Shown here: piece by piece, positions 11,350-24,476 of the stretch
How the letters are laid out: each line of letters starts with the position of its first letter
Numbering within the stretch: position 1 is the stretch's first letter
Sequence record: NC_017345.1
DNA length: 24,491 nucleotides
DNA from: a plasmid
Strand: one strand, 5' to 3'
The notes under the pieces: model-generated
What the model was told of the DNA's origin: nothing
The model's input: the letters and a program-made list of their open reading frames with translations, nothing else
The model's database searches: none
Translations under genes and position numbers: made by a program

Positions 11350-13284
11350 TTAAATCTCCCTCATTAAATCTTTAAAGTATTTTTCAAGATATTTAATATA
11401 AGCAATTTGAAGTAAATATTGAATAATAGCAATAGACACTATTATGAGTAGTAATATCTTTGAACAAAATAAAATATGCGTAGTGTAAGCTAACATAATA
11501 GAAAGTAAGATAGAAATCGTTAAATAACGTACATTACTGCTGAATAATGAATAACCATGAATTTTTCTTAATAATAGTTGCTTTCTATTCCAACTAAAAT
11601 ATTGAATTGTTTCAAATACAGTAGCTATCAAAAGAATGAAAACGTTAATTATGATAGTAACTATTGTTATTATCATTTTTGTTTTCGTTTCATTTATTTC
11701 ATTTAGCACAGAATCCTTGTAATTAGTTATACCGCTAATTTCTTCTGCTAGGTGATTATCTTTAAGCAACTGTTTAAGTGTATCTAAATCTTTAAATAGA
11801 TATCCACCTTGAGAAACAGCAGCTAAATAAAAATCTCCTGTTAAATCGTCAGGCGTCAACAACAGTACTATTGGAGAATCTAGATACCCAAATTTCAAAT
11901 TAGTTGTGCGATCAAAAGAAAAAACAGATACGTTTTTTGACAGTACTTGCACATCTACTTTTTTGTTTTGTTGCTTTTGAAAGTCAATCCATCCTTGGTG
12001 ATTTTTTTGAATTTCAGATTTTTGAGATTGTAACCTTGGAGGAATAAACACGTTTATTTTATCCGAATGATTGGCAATCATTTTAAAATCAGGATTTATA
12101 TTTTTATAGAAATTCAGAAAATTGTTATTGATAAAAAAGACATTGCCATTTTCAGGAATGTAATTATTTTTATCGGGATTGGCTATATTATTATTCTTTA
12201 AAAGCAATCCTCCAAGTTGTTCGCTTTTCTTAATTAAGTTGTATACATTAGTTTCTAAAATTTGTTTTTCTTCTAAGTTTCTAATATTAGGAGAAATCTC
12301 TAACGTATAGTAATTCTCTAGCTTTTGCCAGATTTTTTCAGAGTCATATATATTTTTTAACTTCGTATAAGCATTTAAATTTTGTGCAAGTAAAAAAGAT
12401 AGTATTAGAACCATGGTACATTTGGTGAAGGTACCCATAAATATTGAAAACTTATATCCTTTTTTCCCTTTTAAGGTTAATGGAATATTTAACTTCAAAA
12501 GAAGACTATACGAAATCAGCCACAACAATGTAGTAATACAAGCAAAAACAAAAAGCAACACGATAAACCTACGAACAAACATTAAGAAATCCAATTCTAA
12601 ATTGGCTATATGAATGATTAATATATTAGCAATAAAGAAAATGGAGGTAAGTATTAGCCAATAGATGATTTTTAGATGAATATTATGAAAAATAATGCGT
12701 GTAGTTGAAAAGCCATGTAGCTTTTGAACAGCATAAAATTTTAAATGATGTCCTCTGTCATATAAGTAATACAAAAGATATAATACTCCTAAGAATATGA
12801 AAGGCACTAATAAATCATTATCTATGACTAATTCAAAAAATAATATGTTTCTATTTATGTATTCAACTTCAGATGTTAAACCAGCTTTTTTTAATTCACT
12901 CGTAAGCTCTTCCACATTGAAATGTTCGCCAATAATATAATACTTTCCTTTTATCTCTCTGTTTAATAAATCTGATGGAGTTAAAAGTGATGTTTTATTA
13001 CGTATAAGGTCAGAATTATTTCGTTTTGAGTTGAAAACAAAAAATTCTTGTTTATTATCAAAATCTTTAACGGACCTAATTATTTGTATATTTTGATTTT
13101 TGGCGCCTGATTCAATGGCATCTAACACTTTTGATTTACTGTTAGATTTATCCCAATTAGAGATTGTTAAAATATTGGAACTTTCAGGTATAATTTCTTC
13201 ACTTTCTTTGAAGAAAAATAAAAATAATAGCCCTGAAATTAATAGTAAAGTACTAAAATCTAAAAATAATTTGAATTTTTTCAT
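11350..13284 (-). CDS. bacteriocin-associated integral membrane protein (644 aa; DUF1430/FtsX-like permease), putative immunity/transport partner of the lactococcin-972-like bacteriocin
   Basis: Large polytopic protein with two TM clusters separated by an extracytoplasmic domain, directly downstream of an Lcn972-family prepeptide and upstream of an ABC ATPase. This matches the lclA-lclB-lclC organisation. Confidence 0.7.
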   Translation of the reverse strand: MKKFKLFLDFSTLLLISGLLFLFFFKESEEIIPESSNILTISNWDKSNSKSKVLDAIESGAKNQNIQIIRSVKDFDNKQEFFVFNSKRNNSDLIRNKTSLLTPSDLLNREIKGKYYIIGEHFNVEELTSELKKAGLTSEVEYINRNILFFELVIDNDLLVPFIFLGVLYLLYYLYDRGHHLKFYAVQKLHGFSTTRIIFHNIHLKIIYWLILTSIFFIANILIIHIANLELDFLMFVRRFIVLLFVFACITTLLWLISYSLLLKLNIPLTLKGKKGYKFSIFMGTFTKCTMVLILSFLLAQNLNAYTKLKNIYDSEKIWQKLENYYTLEISPNIRNLEEKQILETNVYNLIKKSEQLGGLLLKNNNIANPDKNNYIPENGNVFFINNNFLNFYKNINPDFKMIANHSDKINVFIPPRLQSQKSEIQKNHQGWIDFQKQQNKKVDVQVLSKNVSVFSFDRTTNLKFGYLDSPIVLLLTPDDLTGDFYLAAVSQGGYLFKDLDTLKQLLKDNHLAEEISGITNYKDSVLNEINETKTKMIITIVTIIINVFILLIATVFETIQYFSWNRKQLLLRKIHGYSLFSSNVRYLTISILLSIMLAYTTHILFCSKILLLIIVSIAIIQYLLQIAYIKYLEKYFKDLMREI

Positions 13285-13296
13285 ATTGCCTCTTTC

Positions 13297-13340
13297 AAGA
13301 GAATAGACAGAATTAAGTTTACTTAATTCTGTCTATTCTC
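13297..13340 (-). terminator. 19-bp perfect-stem hairpin (gagaatagacagaattaag / cttaattctgtctattctc) between the bacteriocin structural gene and the permease gene; attenuator/terminator
   Basis: Read directly. Typical partial terminator separating a highly expressed bacteriocin gene from immunity/export genes. Confidence 0.6.
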
Positions 13341-13358
13341 CTTAATTAATATATGTAA

Positions 13359-13652
13359 TTAGTGAAGACTATAAAATGTTTTGTTTCCACCCCAAGCCTT
13401 TGGAGCAGATGCCTTAGATTGAACACCAGGTCGAGCAACACCACTAAAAGATGAATACTTTCCTACTGCTGTTGAGCCATGGTTTCTTTTATTATGACTA
13501 TAATGAGACCATACGTAATGTTTTCCAATACCATGACTCCAAACACCACCAGCTAAATGTACTGTTGCAGCTTCAGCTTTATAAGTTACACCTAATAAAG
13601 TGCCGAATAAGATTGTACTAGCAATACAACTAGAAACAAATTTCTTTTTCAT
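13359..13652 (-). CDS. lactococcin 972-family bacteriocin precursor (97 aa; Sec signal peptide cleaved after AEA, mature ~69 aa)
   Basis: Signal peptide MKKKFVSSCIASTILFGTLLGVTYKAEA; mature GGVWSHGIGKHYVWSHYSHNKRNHGSTAVG…KTFYSLH resembles Lcn972 (GTWQHGYGVSSAYSNYHHGSKTHSATVV…FYYNFW). Confidence 0.75.
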   Translation of the reverse strand: MKKKFVSSCIASTILFGTLLGVTYKAEAATVHLAGGVWSHGIGKHYVWSHYSHNKRNHGSTAVGKYSSFSGVARPGVQSKASAPKAWGGNKTFYSLH

Positions 13653-14101: not shown

Positions 14102-14710
14102 TCAAGATAATCCCTTATCATGTTTAATTCTATAAACTGTCTGTCTTGTAATATTAACCTCTTTCGCAATCTTACTAATTGCTTGCCCTTCTTCTAACAT
14201 TTCGACAACTCGATGATAGATAACACGTTTTTGGGGATCTTTCGCGTTCGGTGAATAAAGCAAAGGACGCCCTTTATATACGCCTTTTTCTTTCGCAACT
14301 TGAATCCCTTGCGCTTGTCGACGTTTACTTTCATTTCTCTCTTGTTCTGAAACCATTGCTAATATTTGAATGATTATATCTTTCATAAATTTATCTAATA
14401 ATGGATTGCCAATTACTTCATTCATCATAGGTAAGCTGGTAATCATTAACTGAACGTCTTTTTCTTTTAAATAATTCACAGTTTCAATAATTTCATCATA
14501 GTTACGTCCTAAACGATCAATAGATTCCACAACGAATCGATCTCCCATTCTGACAAAATTGAGAGCTTCTTGAAATATAAATCTATTTTCCACTGACTTT
14601 CCCGACTGTTTCTCTGTAAAGATTTTCTCCACACCAAATGTCTTTAAATTATCCAATTGTCTTTCTAAATTTTGATCTATCGAAGATACTCTTGCATAAC
14701 CTATAATCAT
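14102..14710 (-). CDS. sin: Sin serine recombinase/resolvase (202 aa)
   Basis: [17 protein letters not shown]…[21 protein letters not shown] matches remembered Sin of staphylococcal beta-lactamase plasmids. Confidence 0.9.
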
Positions 14711-15095
14711 TCATTTTCACTCCATAATTAATATACACCCTAATCATACATTTAAGTTACTATAAATTCAATAACTTATTTTGTGTGATTAGGGTGTCAC
14801 TTTGCTTGATATATGAGAATTATTTAACCTTATAAATGAGAAAAAAGCAACGCACTTTAAATAAGATACGTTGCTTTTTCGATTGATGAACACCTATAAT
14901 TAAACTATTCATCTATTATTTATGATTTTTTGTATATACAATATTTCTAGTTTGTTAAAGAGAATTAAGAAAATAAATCTCGAAAATAATAGAGGGAAAA
15001 TCAGTTTTTGATATCAAAATTATACATGTCAACGATAATACAAAATATAATACAAAATATAAGATGTTATCAGTATTTATTATGCATTTAGAATA

Positions 15096-16047
<952 letters not shown>

Positions 16048-17805
16048 ATGGCTAAGTTATTAATAATGAGCATAGTAAGCTTTTGTTTTATATTTCTATT
16101 GTTATTATTTTTTAGGTACATATTAAAACGCTATTTTAATTATATGTTAAATTATAAAGTTTGGTATCTAACTCTTCTTGCAGGATTAATTCCTTTCATT
16201 CCTATTAAATTCTCTCTTTTTAAATTTAATAATGTGAATAATCAAGCGCCCACAGTTGAAAGTAAGTCACACGACTTGAACCATAACATAAATACCACCA
16301 AACCTATTCAAGAGTTCACAACAGATATCCATAAGTTTAATTGGGATTCAATTGATAATATCTGCACAGTTATTTGGATAGTTTTAGTTATTATTTTAAG
16401 TTTTAAATTTTTGAAAGCCTTATTATATCTTAAATATTTAAAGAAACAGTCACTTTATCTAAACGAAAATGAAAAAAATAAAATAGATACGATACTTTTC
16501 AACCATCAATATAAAAAAAATATTGTGATTCGAAAAGCAGAGACTATTCAATCTCCAATAACTTTTTGGTATGGGAAATATATTATTTTGATTCCTAGTT
16601 CATATTTTAAAAGTGTAATTGACAAAAGACTAAAATATATAATATTGCATGAATATGCTCATGCTAAAAATAGAGATACTTTACATTTAATTATCTTTAA
16701 TATCTTCTCTATTATTATGAGTTACAATCCATTAGTACATATTGTAAAAAGAAAGATAATTCATGACAATGAAGTAGAAGCCGATAGATTTGTCCTTAAT
16801 AATATTAACAAAAATGAATTTAAAACTTATGCGGAATCTATTATGGACTCCGTATTAAATGTTCCATTTTTTAATAAAAATATATTAAGCCATTCATTTA
16901 ATGGTAAAAAGTCATTACTCAAAAGAAGATTAATTAATATAAAAGAAGCCAATCTGAAAAAACAGTCCAAATTAATTCTAATTTTTATTTGTATTTTTAC
17001 TTTTTTGCTCATGGTAATTCAAAGCCAGTTTTTGATGGGGCAATCCATAACTGATTATAATTATAAAAAGCCCTTACACAACGATTACCAAATTTTAGAT
17101 AAAAGTAAAATTTTTGGTTCAAATAGTGGATCTTTCGTCATGTACAGCATGAAGAAAGACAAATACTATATTTATAACGAAAAAGAAAGTAGAAAAAGGT
17201 ATTCTCCTAATTCAACTTATAAAATTTATTTAGCTATGTTTGGACTTGACCGACATATTATAAATGATGAAAATTCACGTATGTCATGGAATCATAAGCA
17301 TTACCCTTTTGATGCTTGGAATAAGGAACAAGATTTAAATACAGCAATGCAAAATTCAGTTAATTGGTACTTCGAACGTATTAGCGATCAAATACCAAAG
17401 AACTATACTGCGACTCAACTCAAGCAATTAAATTATGGTAATAAAAATTTGGGAAGTTATAAAAGCTATTGGATGGAAGATAGTTTGAAAATATCTAATC
17501 TTGAACAAGTAATAGTTTTTAAAAATATGATGGAACAAAATAACCATTTTAGTAAAAAAGCAAAGAATCAATTATCTTCTTCATTATTGATTAAGAAAAA
17601 TGAAAAGTATGAACTGTATGGGAAAACAGGTACAGGTATAGTAAACGGGAAGTATAATAATGGGTGGTTTGTAGGTTACGTAATTACAAATCATGATAAG
17701 TATTATTTTGCTACACATTTATCAGATGGAAAGCCATCTGGGAAAAATGCTGAATTAATCAGTGAAAAAATATTAAAAGAAATGGGTGTTTTAAATGGCC
17801 AATAA
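16048..17805 (+). CDS. blaR1: BlaR1 beta-lactam sensor/signal transducer (585 aa from [10 protein letters not shown]…)
   Basis: [10 protein letters not shown] zinc-protease motif and C-terminal penicillin-binding sensor domain (…KTGTG…); overlaps blaI by 11 nt. Confidence 0.95.
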
Positions 17806-18175
17806 GCAAGTTGAAATATCTATGGCTGAATGGGATGTTATGAATATAATATGGGGTAAAAAATCAGTATCAGCTAATGAAATTGTAGTTGAAATTCAAA
17901 AATATAAAGAAGTTAGCGATAAAACGATTAGAACATTAATCACAAGACTATATAAAAAAGAGATTATAAAACGATACAAATCAGAGAATATTTATTTTTA
18001 CTCATCAAATATTAAAGAAGACGATATTAAAATGAAAACTGCTAAAACCTTTCTTAATAAACTGTATGGAGGGGACATGAAAAGTTTAGTGCTGAATTTT
18101 GCGAAAAATGAAGAATTAAATAACAAAGAAATTGAAGAATTGCGAGACATTTTAAATGATATTAGTAAAAAGTAA
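17795..18175 (+). CDS. blaI: BlaI penicillinase repressor (126 aa)
   Basis: [35 protein letters not shown]… winged-helix BlaI/MecI family. Confidence 0.95.
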
Positions 18176-18273
18176 TTAGAGATATGTTTCAAACATAATA
18201 CATATGTAAACTATGCTTGACTCTTATTAAATTAGTTTTGTTAATAACATTTAAAATATATTATTAAAGATGA

Positions 18274-18307
18274 GAGTGTACAGAAAATAACCATTTTCTG
18301 TACACTC
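18274..18307. promoter_or_regulatory. 30-34-bp perfect palindrome gagtgtacagaaaat-aacc-attttctgtacactc + T-run: the blaI terminator and/or crossover site I of the Tn552 resL
   Basis: Read directly. It has the size and 12-14-bp arm architecture of a serine-recombinase site I, and sits ~130 bp upstream of binL. Confidence 0.45.
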
Positions 18308-18438
18308 TTCTTTTATATCTAAATAAGTAAGAATTACATAGGATTATGTGTTCAAAAACCCAACAAAAAATCTATGTTCATAAAAGACCTTGTAATTAAG
18401 TTATGGTACACTGAAGATGTATATAGGAGGTTTGTATT

Positions 18439-19032
18439 TTGAAAATAGGTTATGCAAGAGTTTCAACTGGATTACAAAATTTAAATTTACAGGAGGATCG
18501 ATTAAATACATATGGTTGTGAAAAGATATTTAATGACCATATGAGTGGTTCAAAAAGTAAAAGACCTGGTTTAGATAAAGCAATTGAATTTGCGAGGTCG
18601 GGAGATACGATTGTTGTTTGGAGATTAGATAGATTGGGACGTAATATGGAAGATTTAATCACATTAGTCAATGAACTTAATGAGAGAGGCGTGAGTTTCC
18701 ATAGCTTAGAAGAAAATATAACCATGGATAAATCAAGTTCTACAGGACAATTATTATTTCATTTATTCGCAGCATTTGCAGAATTTGAACGTAATTTAAT
18801 TTTAGAGCGTTCTTCAGCTGGCCGAATTGCAGCACGTGCTAGAGGCCGATATGGAGGCAGACCAGAGAAATTAAATCAAAAAGATTTAAACTTACTTAAG
18901 ACACTTTATGATAATGGCACGCCAATTAAGACAATTGCAGAACAGTGGCATGTTTCACGTACAACAATTTATCGTTACCTCAATAAATTGGAGGACAAGG
19001 AAGATGAAAAACAAGGAGAAGTATCTAACTAA
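18439..19032 (+). CDS. binL: BinL serine recombinase/resolvase of Tn552 (197 aa)
   Basis: MKIGYARVSTGLQNLNLQ… catalytic Ser region and C-terminal HTH; overlaps the p480 start. Confidence 0.9.
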   Translation: MKIGYARVSTGLQNLNLQEDRLNTYGCEKIFNDHMSGSKSKRPGLDKAIEFARSGDTIVVWRLDRLGRNMEDLITLVNELNERGVSFHSLEENITMDKSSSTGQLLFHLFAAFAEFERNLILERSSAGRIAARARGRYGGRPEKLNQKDLNLLKTLYDNGTPIKTIAEQWHVSRTTIYRYLNKLEDKEDEKQGEVSN

Positions 19033-20446
19033 TTTTTCTGAAGCCAAACGTAAAAAAGCTATTCAAAAGTACAATATTATAAAACCTTTTATCCTAGGCG
19101 AACAATCTTTATCAAGTATTTCTAAAAGTAAAGGGATTGCGTTAAGCACCCTTTATAGGTGGAATAAGTCGTATAAAGAACAAGGACTTAAAGGACTAAT
19201 CTATGCGACAAGAGCTGATAAAGGAACACGTAAAATAGAACCAATGATAATTGATGAAATTGAACGCCTTGCGCTTATGAATAAAAGAAATAGTATAGCC
19301 ACAATTCATAGGAAAATCACTAATTACTGTAAAGAAAATAATTTTGATATACCAAGTTATAAACAAATTTATAGTGTTATTAAAGCGATGCCTAAGTCTG
19401 TTATTGATTTCTCTCATCAGGGTGAAAAATACTATCAAAATAAGTACGATTTAATACAAATTAGAGAATCCTCGAGACCCAATGAAATATGGCAAGCAGA
19501 CCATACTTTGCTAGATATCTTTATATTAGACCAAAAAGGTAATATCAATAGACCATGGCTAACTATTATTATGGATGACTATAGTCGTGCAATTGCAGGC
19601 TATTTCTTAAGTTTTGATGCCCCCAATGCTCAAAACACAGCATTAACACTACACCAAGCAATATGGAATAAAAATGATACCAATTGGCCAGTGTGTGGTA
19701 TACCCGAAAAATTCTACACAGATCATGGAAGTGACTTTACTTCACATCATATGGAACAAGTCGCTATTGATTTGAAAATTAACTTGATGTTTTCGAAAGT
19801 TGGTGTTCCTCGTGGTCGTGGAAAAATAGAACGATTTTTTCAGACAGTTAATCAAACTTTCTTAGAACAACTGCCTGGATATATAAACAATAACGATACT
19901 CCTAGTAATCTAATAAATTTTCACAATTTTGAAGAAAAATTACGTTACTTTTTAATTGAAGATTATAATCAAAAAGAACATAGTACTATTCATACCACGC
20001 CTATCAGTCGTTGGAATAGTAATCACTTTTTCCCTAATATGCCAAGTAGCTTAGAACAACTTGATTTATTATTGTTGGAAATACCTAAATCTAGAAAAGT
20101 TCATTCAGATGGCATTCATTTTCAAGGTTTTCGATACAGTAATACTAATCTAGCAGCTTATGTAGGTGAATATGTACTGATTCGTTATAACCCAAATGAT
20201 ATGGCTGAAATACGTGTGTTTTATAGAGATGAATTTCTTTGTACTGCTATATGTCCAGAAATAGCTGATTACTCCATAGATATAAAAGACATACAGCACG
20301 CTCGTAGTCAGAGAAGAAAACACTTAAAACAAAATATTGCTAGTCCAAGTACCACGGAATTAATTAAGGAAGAAAAAAATTGTGGTTATTCACCTCAAGA
20401 AACGACTAAAAACGTCAAAAAATTAAAGAGGTATCGTAATGACTAA
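19004..20446 (+). CDS. Tn552 transposase p480 (480 aa, DDE; start MKNKEKY with RBS ggagg)
   Basis: Length exactly 480 aa from the ATG at 19004. Integrase-type DDE core (…WQADHT…DHGSDF…E…). The track ORF is an in-frame upstream extension. Confidence 0.9.
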   Translation: MKNKEKYLTNFSEAKRKKAIQKYNIIKPFILGEQSLSSISKSKGIALSTLYRWNKSYKEQGLKGLIYATRADKGTRKIEPMIIDEIERLALMNKRNSIATIHRKITNYCKENNFDIPSYKQIYSVIKAMPKSVIDFSHQGEKYYQNKYDLIQIRESSRPNEIWQADHTLLDIFILDQKGNINRPWLTIIMDDYSRAIAGYFLSFDAPNAQNTALTLHQAIWNKNDTNWPVCGIPEKFYTDHGSDFTSHHMEQVAIDLKINLMFSKVGVPRGRGKIERFFQTVNQTFLEQLPGYINNNDTPSNLINFHNFEEKLRYFLIEDYNQKEHSTIHTTPISRWNSNHFFPNMPSSLEQLDLLLLEIPKSRKVHSDGIHFQGFRYSNTNLAAYVGEYVLIRYNPNDMAEIRVFYRDEFLCTAICPEIADYSIDIKDIQHARSQRRKHLKQNIASPSTTELIKEEKNCGYSPQETTKNVKKLKRYRND

Positions 20447-21254
20447 AAATCAAAATTTCATTGAAACGAAAGAGTATAAACGCTTTGCTGAATTTTGTGA
20501 TGCTTGTATTAAATATCAGTATATTGGTATATGTTATGGTCAACCTGGTGTCGGAAAAACTTTATCGTCTAGGTATTACACAAATTGGGATACTATTGAA
20601 AAACAAGTTAACCATAGAGGTTGGGAAGATTTAGCTAGTAAAACGACCGATGACATACTATCGGTGGATAAAATATTTTATACTGCACCAGCAGAAAAAC
20701 AAACTAAATTAAGGAATGATTTATATAGTATTACTGCAAGCATTGATTTGGGTCAAAAATTGCATGTTGTAAATAAGTATGGACATGAACATAGTAAACA
20801 TTATAGTGATATGTTTAAATATATTGATTTAATTATAGTAGATGAGATTGATCGCCTTAAAGTGCAACATTTAGAGCAATTAAGAGCTATTTATGATGAA
20901 CATAATTTAGCAATGATATTTATTGGTATGCCAGGCATAGAGAAAAAACTATCTCGTTATCCTCAACTATATTCGCGTATAGGTTTTGCGCATGAATTTG
21001 ATAATCTAAGTAAAGATGAGACGCATCATATATTAGAATATAAGTGGCAAGATTTAGGATTTGATTTAAAACTCGAAGACTTTACTGATTATGAGGCAAT
21101 AACGACGATTATTAAAATTACAAAAGGGAATTTTAGGCTGATTCATCGTTTATTTGCGCAGATAGACAGAATTATGGATATAAATGGTTTAGATAAAATA
21201 AGTACAGAAGTTGTAGAAACAGCTAGAGATAGTTTAGTTATAGGTATTCGATAA
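20439..21254 (+). CDS. Tn552 p271 ATP-binding transposition protein (271 aa, AAA+/MuB-TnsC-like)
   Basis: Walker A GQPGVGKT, Walker B IIVDEIDRL; overlaps the p480 stop by 8 nt. Confidence 0.9.
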   Translation: MTKNQNFIETKEYKRFAEFCDACIKYQYIGICYGQPGVGKTLSSRYYTNWDTIEKQVNHRGWEDLASKTTDDILSVDKIFYTAPAEKQTKLRNDLYSITASIDLGQKLHVVNKYGHEHSKHYSDMFKYIDLIIVDEIDRLKVQHLEQLRAIYDEHNLAMIFIGMPGIEKKLSRYPQLYSRIGFAHEFDNLSKDETHHILEYKWQDLGFDLKLEDFTDYEAITTIIKITKGNFRLIHRLFAQIDRIMDINGLDKISTEVVETARDSLVIGIR

Positions 21255-21386
21255 TAGAAAAAGCAACGCATTTTAATATAATGCGTTGCTTTTCTCATTT
21301 ATTAGGTAAAGTCATTCTCATATATCGAGTAAAGTGACAGATTAGGGTGTACTTAAATAACACAAAAGTAGGTTTAATATAATTAA

Positions 21387-23155
21387 TTATATTAAATTTA
21401 CATAATTTAAATCTATGAGTGGTACTTTTTCTTCTAATAATTCACTAAAAAATTCATCCACATTATCTTTTGAATTAATATAATTCCAGTTTAAATCGCT
21501 CTTATATCCTTTCTGATTTGAACCATATTTTTGACTCATGCAATAACTATTAATTTCTTTTTTTGAAATCACATTTTCTTTTATTAAATAGTAAATAAAG
21601 TATCTGAAATACCATAAATTTTGCGACATTACACCTACTGTTGCAGGATAATCATCCTTAGAATTTTTAAATAGATTATCAATTTTTTTTAATAAATTTT
21701 CTATTTTCCAAGACTTTCTTAGATATATTATTGTCAATAACGATAGAGATAAGTTATCTGTATTTTCATTTAGCAAACTCAAAACATCATTTTTTAAAAG
21801 AATATCTACATCATATTCAACAATATAAACAAGAATTTGGTATGTTTCTTGATGATAATTATTTTTATTATAAAATACTAACAATTTTCTAATTTCTTCG
21901 TTTCTATTTTTAAAATACTGTTTAACTTGTTTTGAGACTATTTTTTTATCGTCCATTTTAATAGTCAAATAGTTTAATAAAGATAGGCATCTATTTGTTA
22001 ATTTAGAGTCTTTTAGTGATAAATCTAATATGAATTGCAAGATATTGAATTTAGTAATATTATTCCTATATCCAAATATCTTACTTATTTGATGTTTATT
22101 TATTTTTTTCTTCTTTAAAGTATTTTCTATTACTGGGAAAATACTTTTTATTGCCCCTTTATTTCCTTTTCTTTCTTCATCTATACATAAATCAATAAAG
22201 TTCTTAATACCTATAATCCAAGTTTCATCTTTACTATTTGAGGAATAATTTTTGAAATAATTAAATATAAAGTCTTTGTTTTGTGGATGTATATATGGAA
22301 AATCATTTACTTCAGTTTTCTTGTCATTAATTTTTAATTCATATTTCATACATAGTTTGTTAAAATCTCTGTAAAATTTATCTTTCTCTTCTTCAAAATT
22401 AAATGAGAATGATATGTCATCCACATATCTCGCATATCTATACCCTTTATTTTCCATTTCAGAATCAATATAACACATATATAATTCACTAATAATACGA
22501 CTTAATATGTTGCCAGTAGGTATTCCATGAGTTTGATTATATTGACAGGATGTAATTAATTTATCTAATTGATTTGAAAAACCTTTCTTTCTTTTTTAGC
22601 ATTCTTCTTTCCCATTATTACCCAAGGTATGCTATGTGTATAAAGAGAATGATAAAAATTAGATAAATCAACGTTTAATATATGATTACCACCGTAAAGT
22701 AAAGTCTTTTTTAAATTGTCAGTAAATTTAAAATCAAAATCTGGAAGTGAAAAAAATTTAGATGTTGAAAATTTATTGGTTAGAAAAACTTCTTTAAATT
22801 CTTTTTTATTTTCTTGCATGAAAAACATCAAATTTAAATAGCTATAAATATTAGGAATCTTATATTCTCTTCTTGATGTATTATTTTTCGGAATAGTAAA
22901 TATTATTGGTTCAGTACTACGTATGTTTCTATCATTAAAAAATTTTTTAATGTAAAATGGATTATAAGTAATATATTCAGCTAATTTACTCATATTAAAT
23001 ATTTTCAAATAAAATGCATCTGATTTACCGTAGCTGTTTAATTCTGTTAAATCTTGATTATTTTTAGGAGTAATATCAAAATAACCATAATTAATTAAAA
23101 AATTAGTACTAAATAAATCATCGTACAATCTTTCCATTCTTTTTTTACTCTTCAT
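21387..23155 (-). pseudogene. Abi-type single-protein reverse transcriptase (~590 aa if read through): an N-terminal RT domain with motifs 1-5, then a ~300-aa K/N/Y-rich alpha-helical C-terminal domain. Broken by a -1 frameshift in an A6 run (22592-22597)
   Basis: Track ORFs 23155-22565 and 22478-21387 belong together. Motifs: FTIPKNNTSRREYKIPNIYSYLNLMF (1/2), NVDLSNFYHSLYTHSI (3), THGIPTGNILSRIISELYM (4, found by extending the downstream frame upstream across 22479-22595), RYARYVDDISFSF (5, YxDD). Reading A7 instead of A6 joins …GKKNAKK-KGFSNQLDKLITSCQYNQTHGIPTGN…. Confidence 0.75.
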
Positions 23156-23207
23156 AGCCTTTCTCCTACCTTTGCATTTCTCTACTAACCAGTGTTATAA
23201 TTTATAT

Positions 23208-23272
23208 AACGAAAATGATTAACAATTAATGCACCAATCCCCACACTATTGCAGTAGTGTGGGGATTTTTTC
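23208..23272 (+). ncRNA. SprA1AS-like antitoxin RNA: promoter TTGCAT-18-TATAAT (23181-23210), ~60-nt RNA ending at bidirectional terminator aatccccacactattgcagtagtgtggggatttttt
   Basis: Read directly. The RNA carries aacgaaaatgattaacaa, which matches the DNA around the toxin start codon (23376-23393, gtgaacgaaaatgattagcaa) and so is complementary to the toxin mRNA there. Confidence 0.6.
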
Positions 23273-23300
23273 GATGCTGGCTTATAAAGTCGCCTATTAA

Positions 23301-23393
23301 TTATTTGTTGCGTTTACTAAGCCAATAAGTATAATACGCAACAGCACAGCCACTGATGACTGGTGCTATGATGTGAACGAAAATGATTAGCAA
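23301..23393 (-). CDS. PepA1-like type I toxin, 30 aa (TTG start) MLIIFVHIIAPVISGCAVAYYTYWLSKRNK
   Basis: Near-identical to remembered S. aureus PepA1 (MLIFVHIIAPVISGCAIAFFSYWLSRRNTK). GAGGAGG Shine-Dalgarno; the 5'UTR can fold (cgcctatctctc / gagaggagg) to occlude the RBS; TATAAT promoter at ~23445. Confidence 0.75.
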   Translation of the reverse strand: MLIIFVHIIAPVISGCAVAYYTYWLSKRNK

Positions 23394-23517
23394 AGTAATG
23401 CACCTCCTCTCTTCGTCGATTGACGCCTGAGAGATAGGCGACTCTATTATTATACCATCTGTGAATATACAAGCATATCTACTTCCGATAAGTCGTCTTA
23501 TGTTATATAACTTCGTT

Positions 23518-23867: not shown

Positions 23868-24476
23868 CTAAATAACTAAAAATACAATATAAGTTAAAGT
23901 TTTCGCATCACTTCTTGGTATACCTGCTTTAACAAAAGCATTTTCAACAGCTGATTTCGTAGACTTATCTAACCTATCAATTGCATTAGACATCTTTCTT
24001 GAATATTTTTTTACTAGAACAGCATGTTTTCTACTTAATGGTTTAATGATCCAAGATATAGCAGTTCCACCATGTCTCAAAGAAGGTGATAGAGCCTTAA
24101 TAGCTTTTAAAGTTGCACCGATAGGACCTCTAGGAGTAGGCTTATTTGAGTTTAAAGTCATAGAATTATTAGCAAATACTGAAGAATTTAAAGCACCTTC
24201 TTGTTTTGCTAGTAAAACATCATTATCAAAATTAGGATTAAAAGCTCTTTGCTCATCTAGAAACATTTTAAATCCTTCATCATCTCTAGATAAAACTTCC
24301 CAAATATATTCTTGTCCTTCTAACAATTCATTGAATTCTACATTATCATTTTCTACTGTTTTAACAACTTCCTTATTTTCTGCAGCATGAACTACAGGTT
24401 CAAAACTAGAAAATAATAATGCAGTAGATGTTAGTACCAAAGTATTTTTAATAAAAAAACTTTTTAAATTCTTCAT
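23868..24476 (-). CDS. secreted hypothetical protein (202 aa; signal peptide cleaved after VHA-AEN; short hydrophobic C-terminal tail)
   Basis: Classical Sec signal (K-rich n-region, hydrophobic core, AXA site); RBS gaggataaaag upstream; no recognisable catalytic motifs. Confidence 0.5.
   Translation of the reverse strand: MKNLKSFFIKNTLVLTSTALLFSSFEPVVHAAENKEVVKTVENDNVEFNELLEGQEYIWEVLSRDDEGFKMFLDEQRAFNPNFDNDVLLAKQEGALNSSVFANNSMTLNSNKPTPRGPIGATLKAIKALSPSLRHGGTAISWIIKPLSRKHAVLVKKYSRKMSNAIDRLDKSTKSAVENAFVKAGIPRSDAKTLTYIVFLVI

Follow-up and report, generated by a model that had tools for sequence, protein, structure and literature searches.

An abiK gene split by deletion of one AAAG repeat unit on a staphylococcal plasmid: a probable inherited pseudogene of an abortive-infection system

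AbiK is a single-gene abortive-infection system of Gram-positive plasmids, and the protein of this family encoded by Lactococcus lactis plasmid pSRQ800 makes untemplated, protein-linked DNA (Wang et al., 2011; PMC3177184). The hexameric structure of this enzyme (Ll-AbiK) has been solved and the priming tyrosine identified, with Tyr44 carrying the covalent DNA (Figiel et al., 2022; PMC9508834). Asp247 is essential in Ll-AbiK, the D247N substitution killing the enzyme, and the helical domain is required for its oligomerization-dependent activity (PMC9508834; a further source on mechanism and prior knowledge is PMC8093625). Several class 1 reverse transcriptases (RTs) of the Abi/UG group likewise perform protein-primed, template-independent synthesis (PMC9508834, PMC12783706). 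Two Staphylococcus aureus homologues and one from S. epidermidis were aligned within the AbiK family by Wang et al. (2011; PMC3177184), so that the assignment of staphylococcal homologues to this family dates from 2011 (PMC3177184, PMC3276174), and abiK is among the plasmid genes listed by McCarthy and Lindsay (2012; PMC3406946). According to a 2026 preprint, an S. aureus AbiK cloned into RN4220 restricts phages 80alpha and NM4gamma4, which escape through mutations in Sak and Sak4, and also the myovirus ISP, for which the trigger is Gad3 (bioRxiv 10.64898/2026.03.26.714447). Here, an abiK locus is described that lies in a window of 24,491 nucleotides (nt), the whole stretch of plasmid DNA that was analysed (record NC_017345.1); coordinates are positions in this window unless another locus is named. 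The locus is very probably an abiK pseudogene that carries an inherited slippage deletion.

The presence of abiK on staphylococcal penicillinase plasmids was already known from the reports of 2011–2012, and the locus is in this respect an ordinary one, of little import beyond its correct annotation. An initial annotation, prepared from the DNA sequence without database searches, had described phage defence by such an RT in staphylococci, and the product that it polymerizes, as unexplored; this overlooked published work on the enzymology and structure of AbiK and on phage restriction in S. aureus (PMC3177184, PMC9508834, bioRxiv 10.64898/2026.03.26.714447). By analogy with the published L. lactis and S. 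aureus proteins, the intact form of the present protein would be a template-free RT-like polymerase that uses the hydroxyl of an N-terminal tyrosine (Tyr42) as primer. The long random-sequence single-stranded DNA would stay covalently attached, in the channel between the palm and fingers and the C-terminal helical domain of the hexamer. Sensitivity would be set by phage single-strand-annealing recombinases (Sak, Sak4 and relatives), and the expected outcome is that phage replication is blocked and the infected cell is lost.

A megablast search of the region against PLSDB produced near-full-length matches in 192 staphylococcal plasmids, annotated as 'RNA-directed DNA polymerase'. In one of these plasmids, pWBG759, abiK is a single uninterrupted open reading frame (ORF) of 590 amino acids (aa; WP_000837331.1, L001:4146-5918), and this intact protein served as the query in the library tests. 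The PADLOC AbiK profile PDLC02348 matched it with an E-value of 5.4e-214 (residues 5–583 of 590 against profile positions 2–543 of 544), the next non-AbiK PADLOC classes being far weaker (Drt6, 4e-58; Drt4, 1.6e-44; AbiP2, 3e-28). The two minus-strand ORFs of the window, ORF1 (196 aa) and ORF2 (363 aa from its first ATG), match consecutive parts of the same profile (ORF1, positions 2–176 of 544, E-value 1.6e-74; ORF2, positions 213–543 of 544, E-value 4.8e-109), and their coordinates and lengths are exactly those reported in the initial annotation, which had taken them to encode one protein of ~590 aa. A phmmer search against solved structures gave L. lactis AbiK (7R06, 7R07 and 7Z0Z) as the top match, with an E-value of 5.9e-179 for 7R06_A (residues 4–583 against 4–590); the ORF2 region matches the helical domain of 7R06 through residue 583.

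A three-way alignment of the S. aureus, S. epidermidis and L. lactis proteins gives 51.6% identity to Ll-AbiK over 579 positions. Conserved among all three are YGKSD (Tyr42, corresponding to Tyr44 of Ll-AbiK), DLSNFY (with Asp163), GIPTG and YVDD (residues 245–248). The RT fingerprint described from the window sequence is present in full, comprising FTIPKN...YKIPN, VDLSNFYHSL (Asp163), HGIPTGNILSRIISELYM and YVDD (22427-22416). These profile and structure-sequence matches indicate that the gene is abiK itself, the staphylococcal orthologue of Ll-AbiK, and replace the earlier placement as an unassigned Abi/UG RT with a named family.

The other RT families gave weaker results throughout. An assignment to DRT4 or DRT3 was rejected on the NCBIfam scores (Drt4, 130.7 bits against a cut-off of 450; Drt3b, 70.7 against 350; Drt3a, 61.8 against 200), as were a group II intron RT (TIGR04416, 57.7 against 300) and a retron RT (retron_St85_RT, 52.1 against 235), for neither of which an intron or retron RNA was found by Rfam. 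More generally, Abi-P2 and the UG/DRT groups either scored much weaker than AbiK in PADLOC or fell below the curated NCBIfam cut-offs; the Abi/UG class 1 RTs (Abi-P2, DRT4, DRT6, UG30/31 and DRT3b) share the RT core and in part the helical domain, with weaker and partial matches. An Rfam search of the whole window detected no group II intron, retron or other RNA above threshold, the sole match being the Fst antitoxin (fstAT), and a Pfam scan of the intact protein found RVT_1 as its only domain. A HEPN or other effector domain in the C-terminal ~300 aa, for which a hidden Markov model search had been suggested, was likewise rejected, there being no Pfam hit to HEPN at E <= 0.1 and the region aligning to the AbiK helical domain. 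With an Fst toxin–antitoxin (TA) module, Tn552 and sin as its neighbours, the gene is, as initially described, a stand-alone RT of the Abi type, unaccompanied by intron, retron or cas partners, and the profile comparison with RT families that had been proposed as a check places it in neither the group II intron nor the retron clade, AbiK being the best match.

Ll-AbiK and the protein encoded here are collinear over their full length (52% identity) and share the RT-like fingers and palm, the motif A aspartate, YVDD, the priming tyrosine in YGKSD and the C-terminal helical domain; each is encoded by a single plasmid-borne gene that has no noncoding RNA (ncRNA) partner. They differ in host genus and in flanking sequences, which here are the Fst module upstream and the sin res site with Tn552 downstream, and the copy in the window is in addition split by a 4-nt deletion and presumably inactive. 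The known staphylococcal plasmid abiK (WP_000837331.1 of pWBG759; SAP058A_004; UniRef D2J5X9) is the same gene in the same slot, with 99.7–99.8% identity.

Alignment of the window with pWBG759 abiK shows, across the gene, a 4-nt deletion and one single-nucleotide polymorphism (SNP) and nothing else. The deletion removes one AAAG unit from a short tandem repeat that follows an A run (GCTAAAAAAGAAAGAAAGAAAGG in the intact allele, GCTAAAAAAGAAAGAAAGG in the window), so that pWBG759 has (AAAG)4 and the window (AAAG)3. The SNP, at 21845, results in Ala439Thr, and threonine is also found in the S. epidermidis orthologue. The initial annotation was right that the frame is broken but attributed the break to the loss of a single A in a homopolymer. 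That lesion was rejected on alignment to the intact alleles: the A6 run (22592-22597) is the same in the window and in the intact allele, and an AAAG unit is missing instead. One extra A would restore the frame, and the net frame effect of removing 4 nt is likewise −1. The four-unit tract is the functional state; the sequence KKERKKGFSN that it encodes aligns without gaps to KQNRKKGFSN of Ll-AbiK.

Translation of the junction in three frames shows that ORF1 ends in five out-of-frame residues (VFQIN) followed by a TAG stop at 22567-22565, and that the open part of the ORF2 frame starts at 22595, where it immediately follows a TAA codon. The two frames overlap by ~30 nt (22595-22565) with an offset of −1. 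The first ATG of ORF2 falls 3' of motif B, and no convincing Shine–Dalgarno sequence was seen 5' of it.

The break is an inherited and widespread allele and not an artefact, because the identical allele recurs across PLSDB records, contigs and varied genetic contexts. A 60-nt query centred on the break site was searched against PLSDB, giving 178 records, of which 120, or about two thirds, are identical to the window; the sampled rows of this group are plasmids of ~27.2–27.3 kb such as pWBG744. The intact form, with four additional nucleotides, is present in 54 of the 178, three show other small differences, and one (pC85_1) has eight additional nucleotides, corresponding to five units, and is likewise out of frame. 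The exact 196-aa product of ORF1 is encoded on at least 1000 public contigs (UniRef name 'AbiK', D2J5X9_STAAU), and an exact-sequence look-up found the intact 590-aa protein on 968. The exact 363-aa ORF2 of the window occurs on 22 contigs from independent samples, the contexts of which vary from Tn552 in the orientation of the window, through blaZ beside abiK (consistent with Tn552 in the other orientation), to no Tn552 at all. In one 24,576-bp NCBI contig, the sequence and gene arrangement of the abiK region equal those of the window. A sequencing artefact, among the explanations offered at first, or a one-off event is at odds with the recurrence of this allele in hundreds of assemblies.

Two SNP backgrounds carry the AAAG deletion; the bases at 21988/21845/21624 are G/A/G in the window and A/G/C in pWBG744. 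Intact alleles are found on related backgrounds, and all four combinations of tract length and the 21845 SNP occur. The two backgrounds reflect either recurrent slippage or recombination.

Other lesions are frequent. Extra 1-nt indels in ORF1, on top of the deletion, are present in two of eight sampled deletion loci (L010 and L011), as would be expected for a decaying pseudogene. A different frameshift, loss of an A from an A8 run (21690), yields a 507-aa product that is encoded on 132 contigs (RKI4 plasmid), while the abiK gene of pC85_1 combines +AAAG with +TTAT. Altogether, the independent abiK frameshifts on S. aureus plasmids comprise −AAAG, +AAAG, +TTAT, −A (in A8), −T at nt 214 and +A at nt 443 (lesion sites at window positions 21690, 21547 and 22583-22597; loci L004, L005, L010 and L011), and several lineages carry different ones. 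A large share of natural S. aureus plasmid copies of abiK is therefore likely to be non-functional. In CP141461.1 (L002), 1 nt is missing at each of six scattered points within abiK, three of which are in A runs, a pattern suggestive of long-read assembly errors; this record cautions against taking every frameshift in a public plasmid as biological.

The most probable course of events is that replication slippage dropped one AAAG from AAA(AAAG)4 in codons 187–192, so that translation would stop after residue 196. The priming tyrosine and the motif A aspartate Asp163 (ORF1) would thereby be parted from the motif C YVDD and the helical domain (ORF2). Because neither fragment has a complete active site, AbiK defence is most likely not provided by this plasmid. 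At least two SNP backgrounds have acquired the deletion allele, either by its arising there or by recombination, and some copies have later gained further indels.

Several points weigh against this reading. We infer the loss of function from sequence. The two frames overlap in an A-rich stretch (T AAA AAA G), at which a −1 slip would give a near-native protein of 589 aa that lacks only Glu189, so that trace expression from the deletion allele by such a slip is conceivable. The allele is also very common, making up about half of all copies, and could be tolerated or favoured and not simply decaying; most of its abundance is accounted for by the clonal spread of a single ~27.3-kb plasmid lineage. 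Finally, the S. aureus AbiK of the preprint may differ in sequence from the allele of this plasmid (bioRxiv 10.64898/2026.03.26.714447).

The alternative that fares best, although improbable, is that abiK is a phase-variable (contingency) locus in which the AAAG tract toggles the gene reversibly between ON (four units) and OFF (three or five). A costly abortive-infection gene would then be kept mostly silent yet recoverable, and the 'pseudogene' would be a reversible silent state on penicillinase plasmids, a proposal to which we assign the same low probability. The three natural tract lengths (three, four and five units) fit such switching, as do the presence of the three-unit allele on two SNP backgrounds with all four combinations of tract length and the 21845 position, and the lack of a perfect repeat in the diverged S. 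epidermidis orthologue (KKERDKG compared with KKERKKG). However, typical phase-variable tracts are far longer than four tetranucleotide units, the four combinations could equally well result from recombination between plasmids that share a cell, and OFF alleles gather secondary lesions (L010, L011 and L004) that would make switching back useless.

Less probable again, and very unlikely in our estimate, is that the deletion allele is still expressed by −1 ribosomal frameshifting or transcriptional slippage to give low levels of functional AbiK. A Lys-tRNA could slip by −1 on the heptamer in the ~30-nt overlap, with loss of Glu189 only, but in the zero frame this heptamer does not fit the canonical X XXY YYZ pattern, and folding of the sequence 3' of the break revealed no stimulatory RNA structure (minimum free energy −3.3 kcal/mol, z = +1.2 compared with shuffled sequences). 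Efficient transcriptional slippage needs a run longer than A6. The intact allele has the same tract, which is therefore not a dedicated recoding signal, and the secondary indels in deletion alleles also speak against continued expression. That an error in sequencing or assembly of a low-complexity A/G tract produced the break, and that the gene of the real plasmid is intact, is hardly credible. Homopolymer-type errors do occur in some records (e.g. CP141461), but the lesion here is a clean 4-nt unit, unlike a 1-nt homopolymer error, and recurs in 120 complete plasmids and on at least 1000 contigs, which come from many different projects and platforms.

For a pseudogene of this kind, the practical consequence is that defence-system callers and host-range predictions for phage therapy should not count the allele as an active AbiK. 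If the tract did prove to be reversible, the locus would be a modest example of phase-variable plasmid immunity. The features of the locus are listed in Table 1.

Table 1. Positions of abiK, its fragments and the adjoining elements in the window
Feature	Position	Strand	Basis
abiK, probable pseudogene, whole gene	21387..23155	-	Alignment to intact pWBG759 abiK; intact allele 590 aa
ORF1, 196 aa; N-terminal priming loop, fingers and palm motif A	22565..23155	-	ORF list
ORF2, 363 aa from first ATG; palm motifs B/C and C-terminal helical domain	21387..22478	-	ORF list
Tyr42 codon, within conserved YGKSD; equivalent of DNA-priming Tyr44 in L. lactis AbiK	23030..23032	-	Alignment and codon check
AAA(AAAG)3 tract, frame-break site; (AAAG)3 itself 22583-22594	22583..22597	-	Intact alleles (AAAG)4; pC85_1 (AAAG)5
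Fst antitoxin RNA (RNAII) gene, predicted transcript ~65 nt	23172..23272	+	Sequence reading, terminator search, Rfam
Fst-family type I toxin ORF, 30 aa	23301..23393	-	Matches WP_001791613.1 ('type I toxin-antitoxin system Fst family toxin') in pWBG759
Tn552 (blaZ-blaR1-blaI-binL-p480-p271), 6545 bp, TG...CA ends	14795..21339	.	Empty site L009 compared with window; Pfam; related annotation

Immediately upstream of abiK is a complete par/Fst-type type I TA module with a convergent antitoxin RNA. The Rfam fstAT model matches 23250-23350 with 88.5 bits (gathering score 72), and the pWBG759 sequence is identical to the window across the Fst region. The predicted RNAII promoter, TTGCAT-18-TGtTATAAT, was read from the sequence at 23172-23201, and RNAII ends at a bidirectional terminator at 23236-23267. 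A repeat, GAAAATGATTA, present at 23211 and 23380, is complementary to the toxin start region. These RNAII elements are also conserved where abiK is absent and in S. epidermidis loci.

About 1000 abiK-less plasmids share the Fst module, with homology ending at ~23171, 16 nt before the abiK ATG, and the RNAII −35 box (23172-23177) is situated 17–22 nt from that ATG (23155) on the opposite strand; the −35 box of the antitoxin therefore directly adjoins the ribosome-binding site of abiK. Between the terminator and the abiK ATG, a scan with the sigma-70 consensus detected no convincing promoter for abiK. The suggestion that abiK shares its promoter region divergently with the antitoxin RNA thus holds as far as the antitoxin promoter abuts the abiK start. 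A structured ncRNA acting as template or primer, which had been suspected in 23156-23300, was rejected as a candidate: the region is occupied by the Fst antitoxin RNA gene and the bidirectional terminator, the module is conserved in about 1000 plasmids that lack abiK, and AbiK is template-independent (PMC3177184).

The ~27.3-kb pWBG744-like plasmids share the deletion with the window; they differ from it at three SNPs and no longer have the Fst toxin gene. In a comparison of pWBG744 (L003 4300-4470) with window 23236-23450, homology to the window begins at 23235, just past the terminator. In S. epidermidis pHD04-1_1 (L007 3023-5042), the Fst-abiK adjacency is kept on an unrelated MOBQ backbone, with an intact abiK of 590 aa (88% aa identity). 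A staphylococcal-type Fst-abiK adjacency is also seen in a contig binned as a Gemella haemolysans metagenome-assembled genome (L016 2797-4773). This contig was one of three loci returned by a scan of species-representative genomes for Fst-abiK linkage; a Weissella locus had no Fst RNA. The adjacency may mean that the pair moves together as a two-part module or that abiK relies on transcription signals of the Fst locus.

On the other side of abiK, Tn552 lies 47 nt 3' of the abiK stop codon. An 8-bp direct repeat, CCCTAATC, flanks the transposon (14787-14794 and 21340-21347) and represents the target duplication. The insertion lies within one arm of the inverted repeat of sin res, between abiK and the resolvase gene sin (14102..14710), and the empty-site plasmids L009 and L010 retain an uninterrupted abiK-res-sin order. 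This comparison, together with the fstAT hit, agrees with the initial description of abiK as occupying an accessory slot bordered by a sin res site into which Tn552 has inserted and by a type I TA module.

This accessory slot is polymorphic. In the CHAL3 plasmid (NZ_CP125900, L006 5199-6477), it is occupied by a gene for a 324-aa DUF4062 protein, which has exactly the position and orientation of abiK and starts shortly past the last conserved Fst base (window 23156-23175). The CHAL3 DUF4062 protein has no PADLOC hit; the gene could be an alternative uncharacterized cargo, possibly a defence gene. Beside the Fst module, an ORF of 202 aa at 23868-24476 (minus strand) encodes a protein with a hydrophobic, signal-peptide-like N-terminus and no Pfam or PADLOC hit; it is conserved at this position in related plasmids, where it is annotated as hypothetical (WP_000793183.1). 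On the sin side of Tn552, 11350-13652 (minus strand) contains a lactococcin-972-family bacteriocin gene (97 aa) followed by a gene for a DUF1430 membrane protein (644 aa), a bacteriocin/immunity cluster that is typical of these plasmids.

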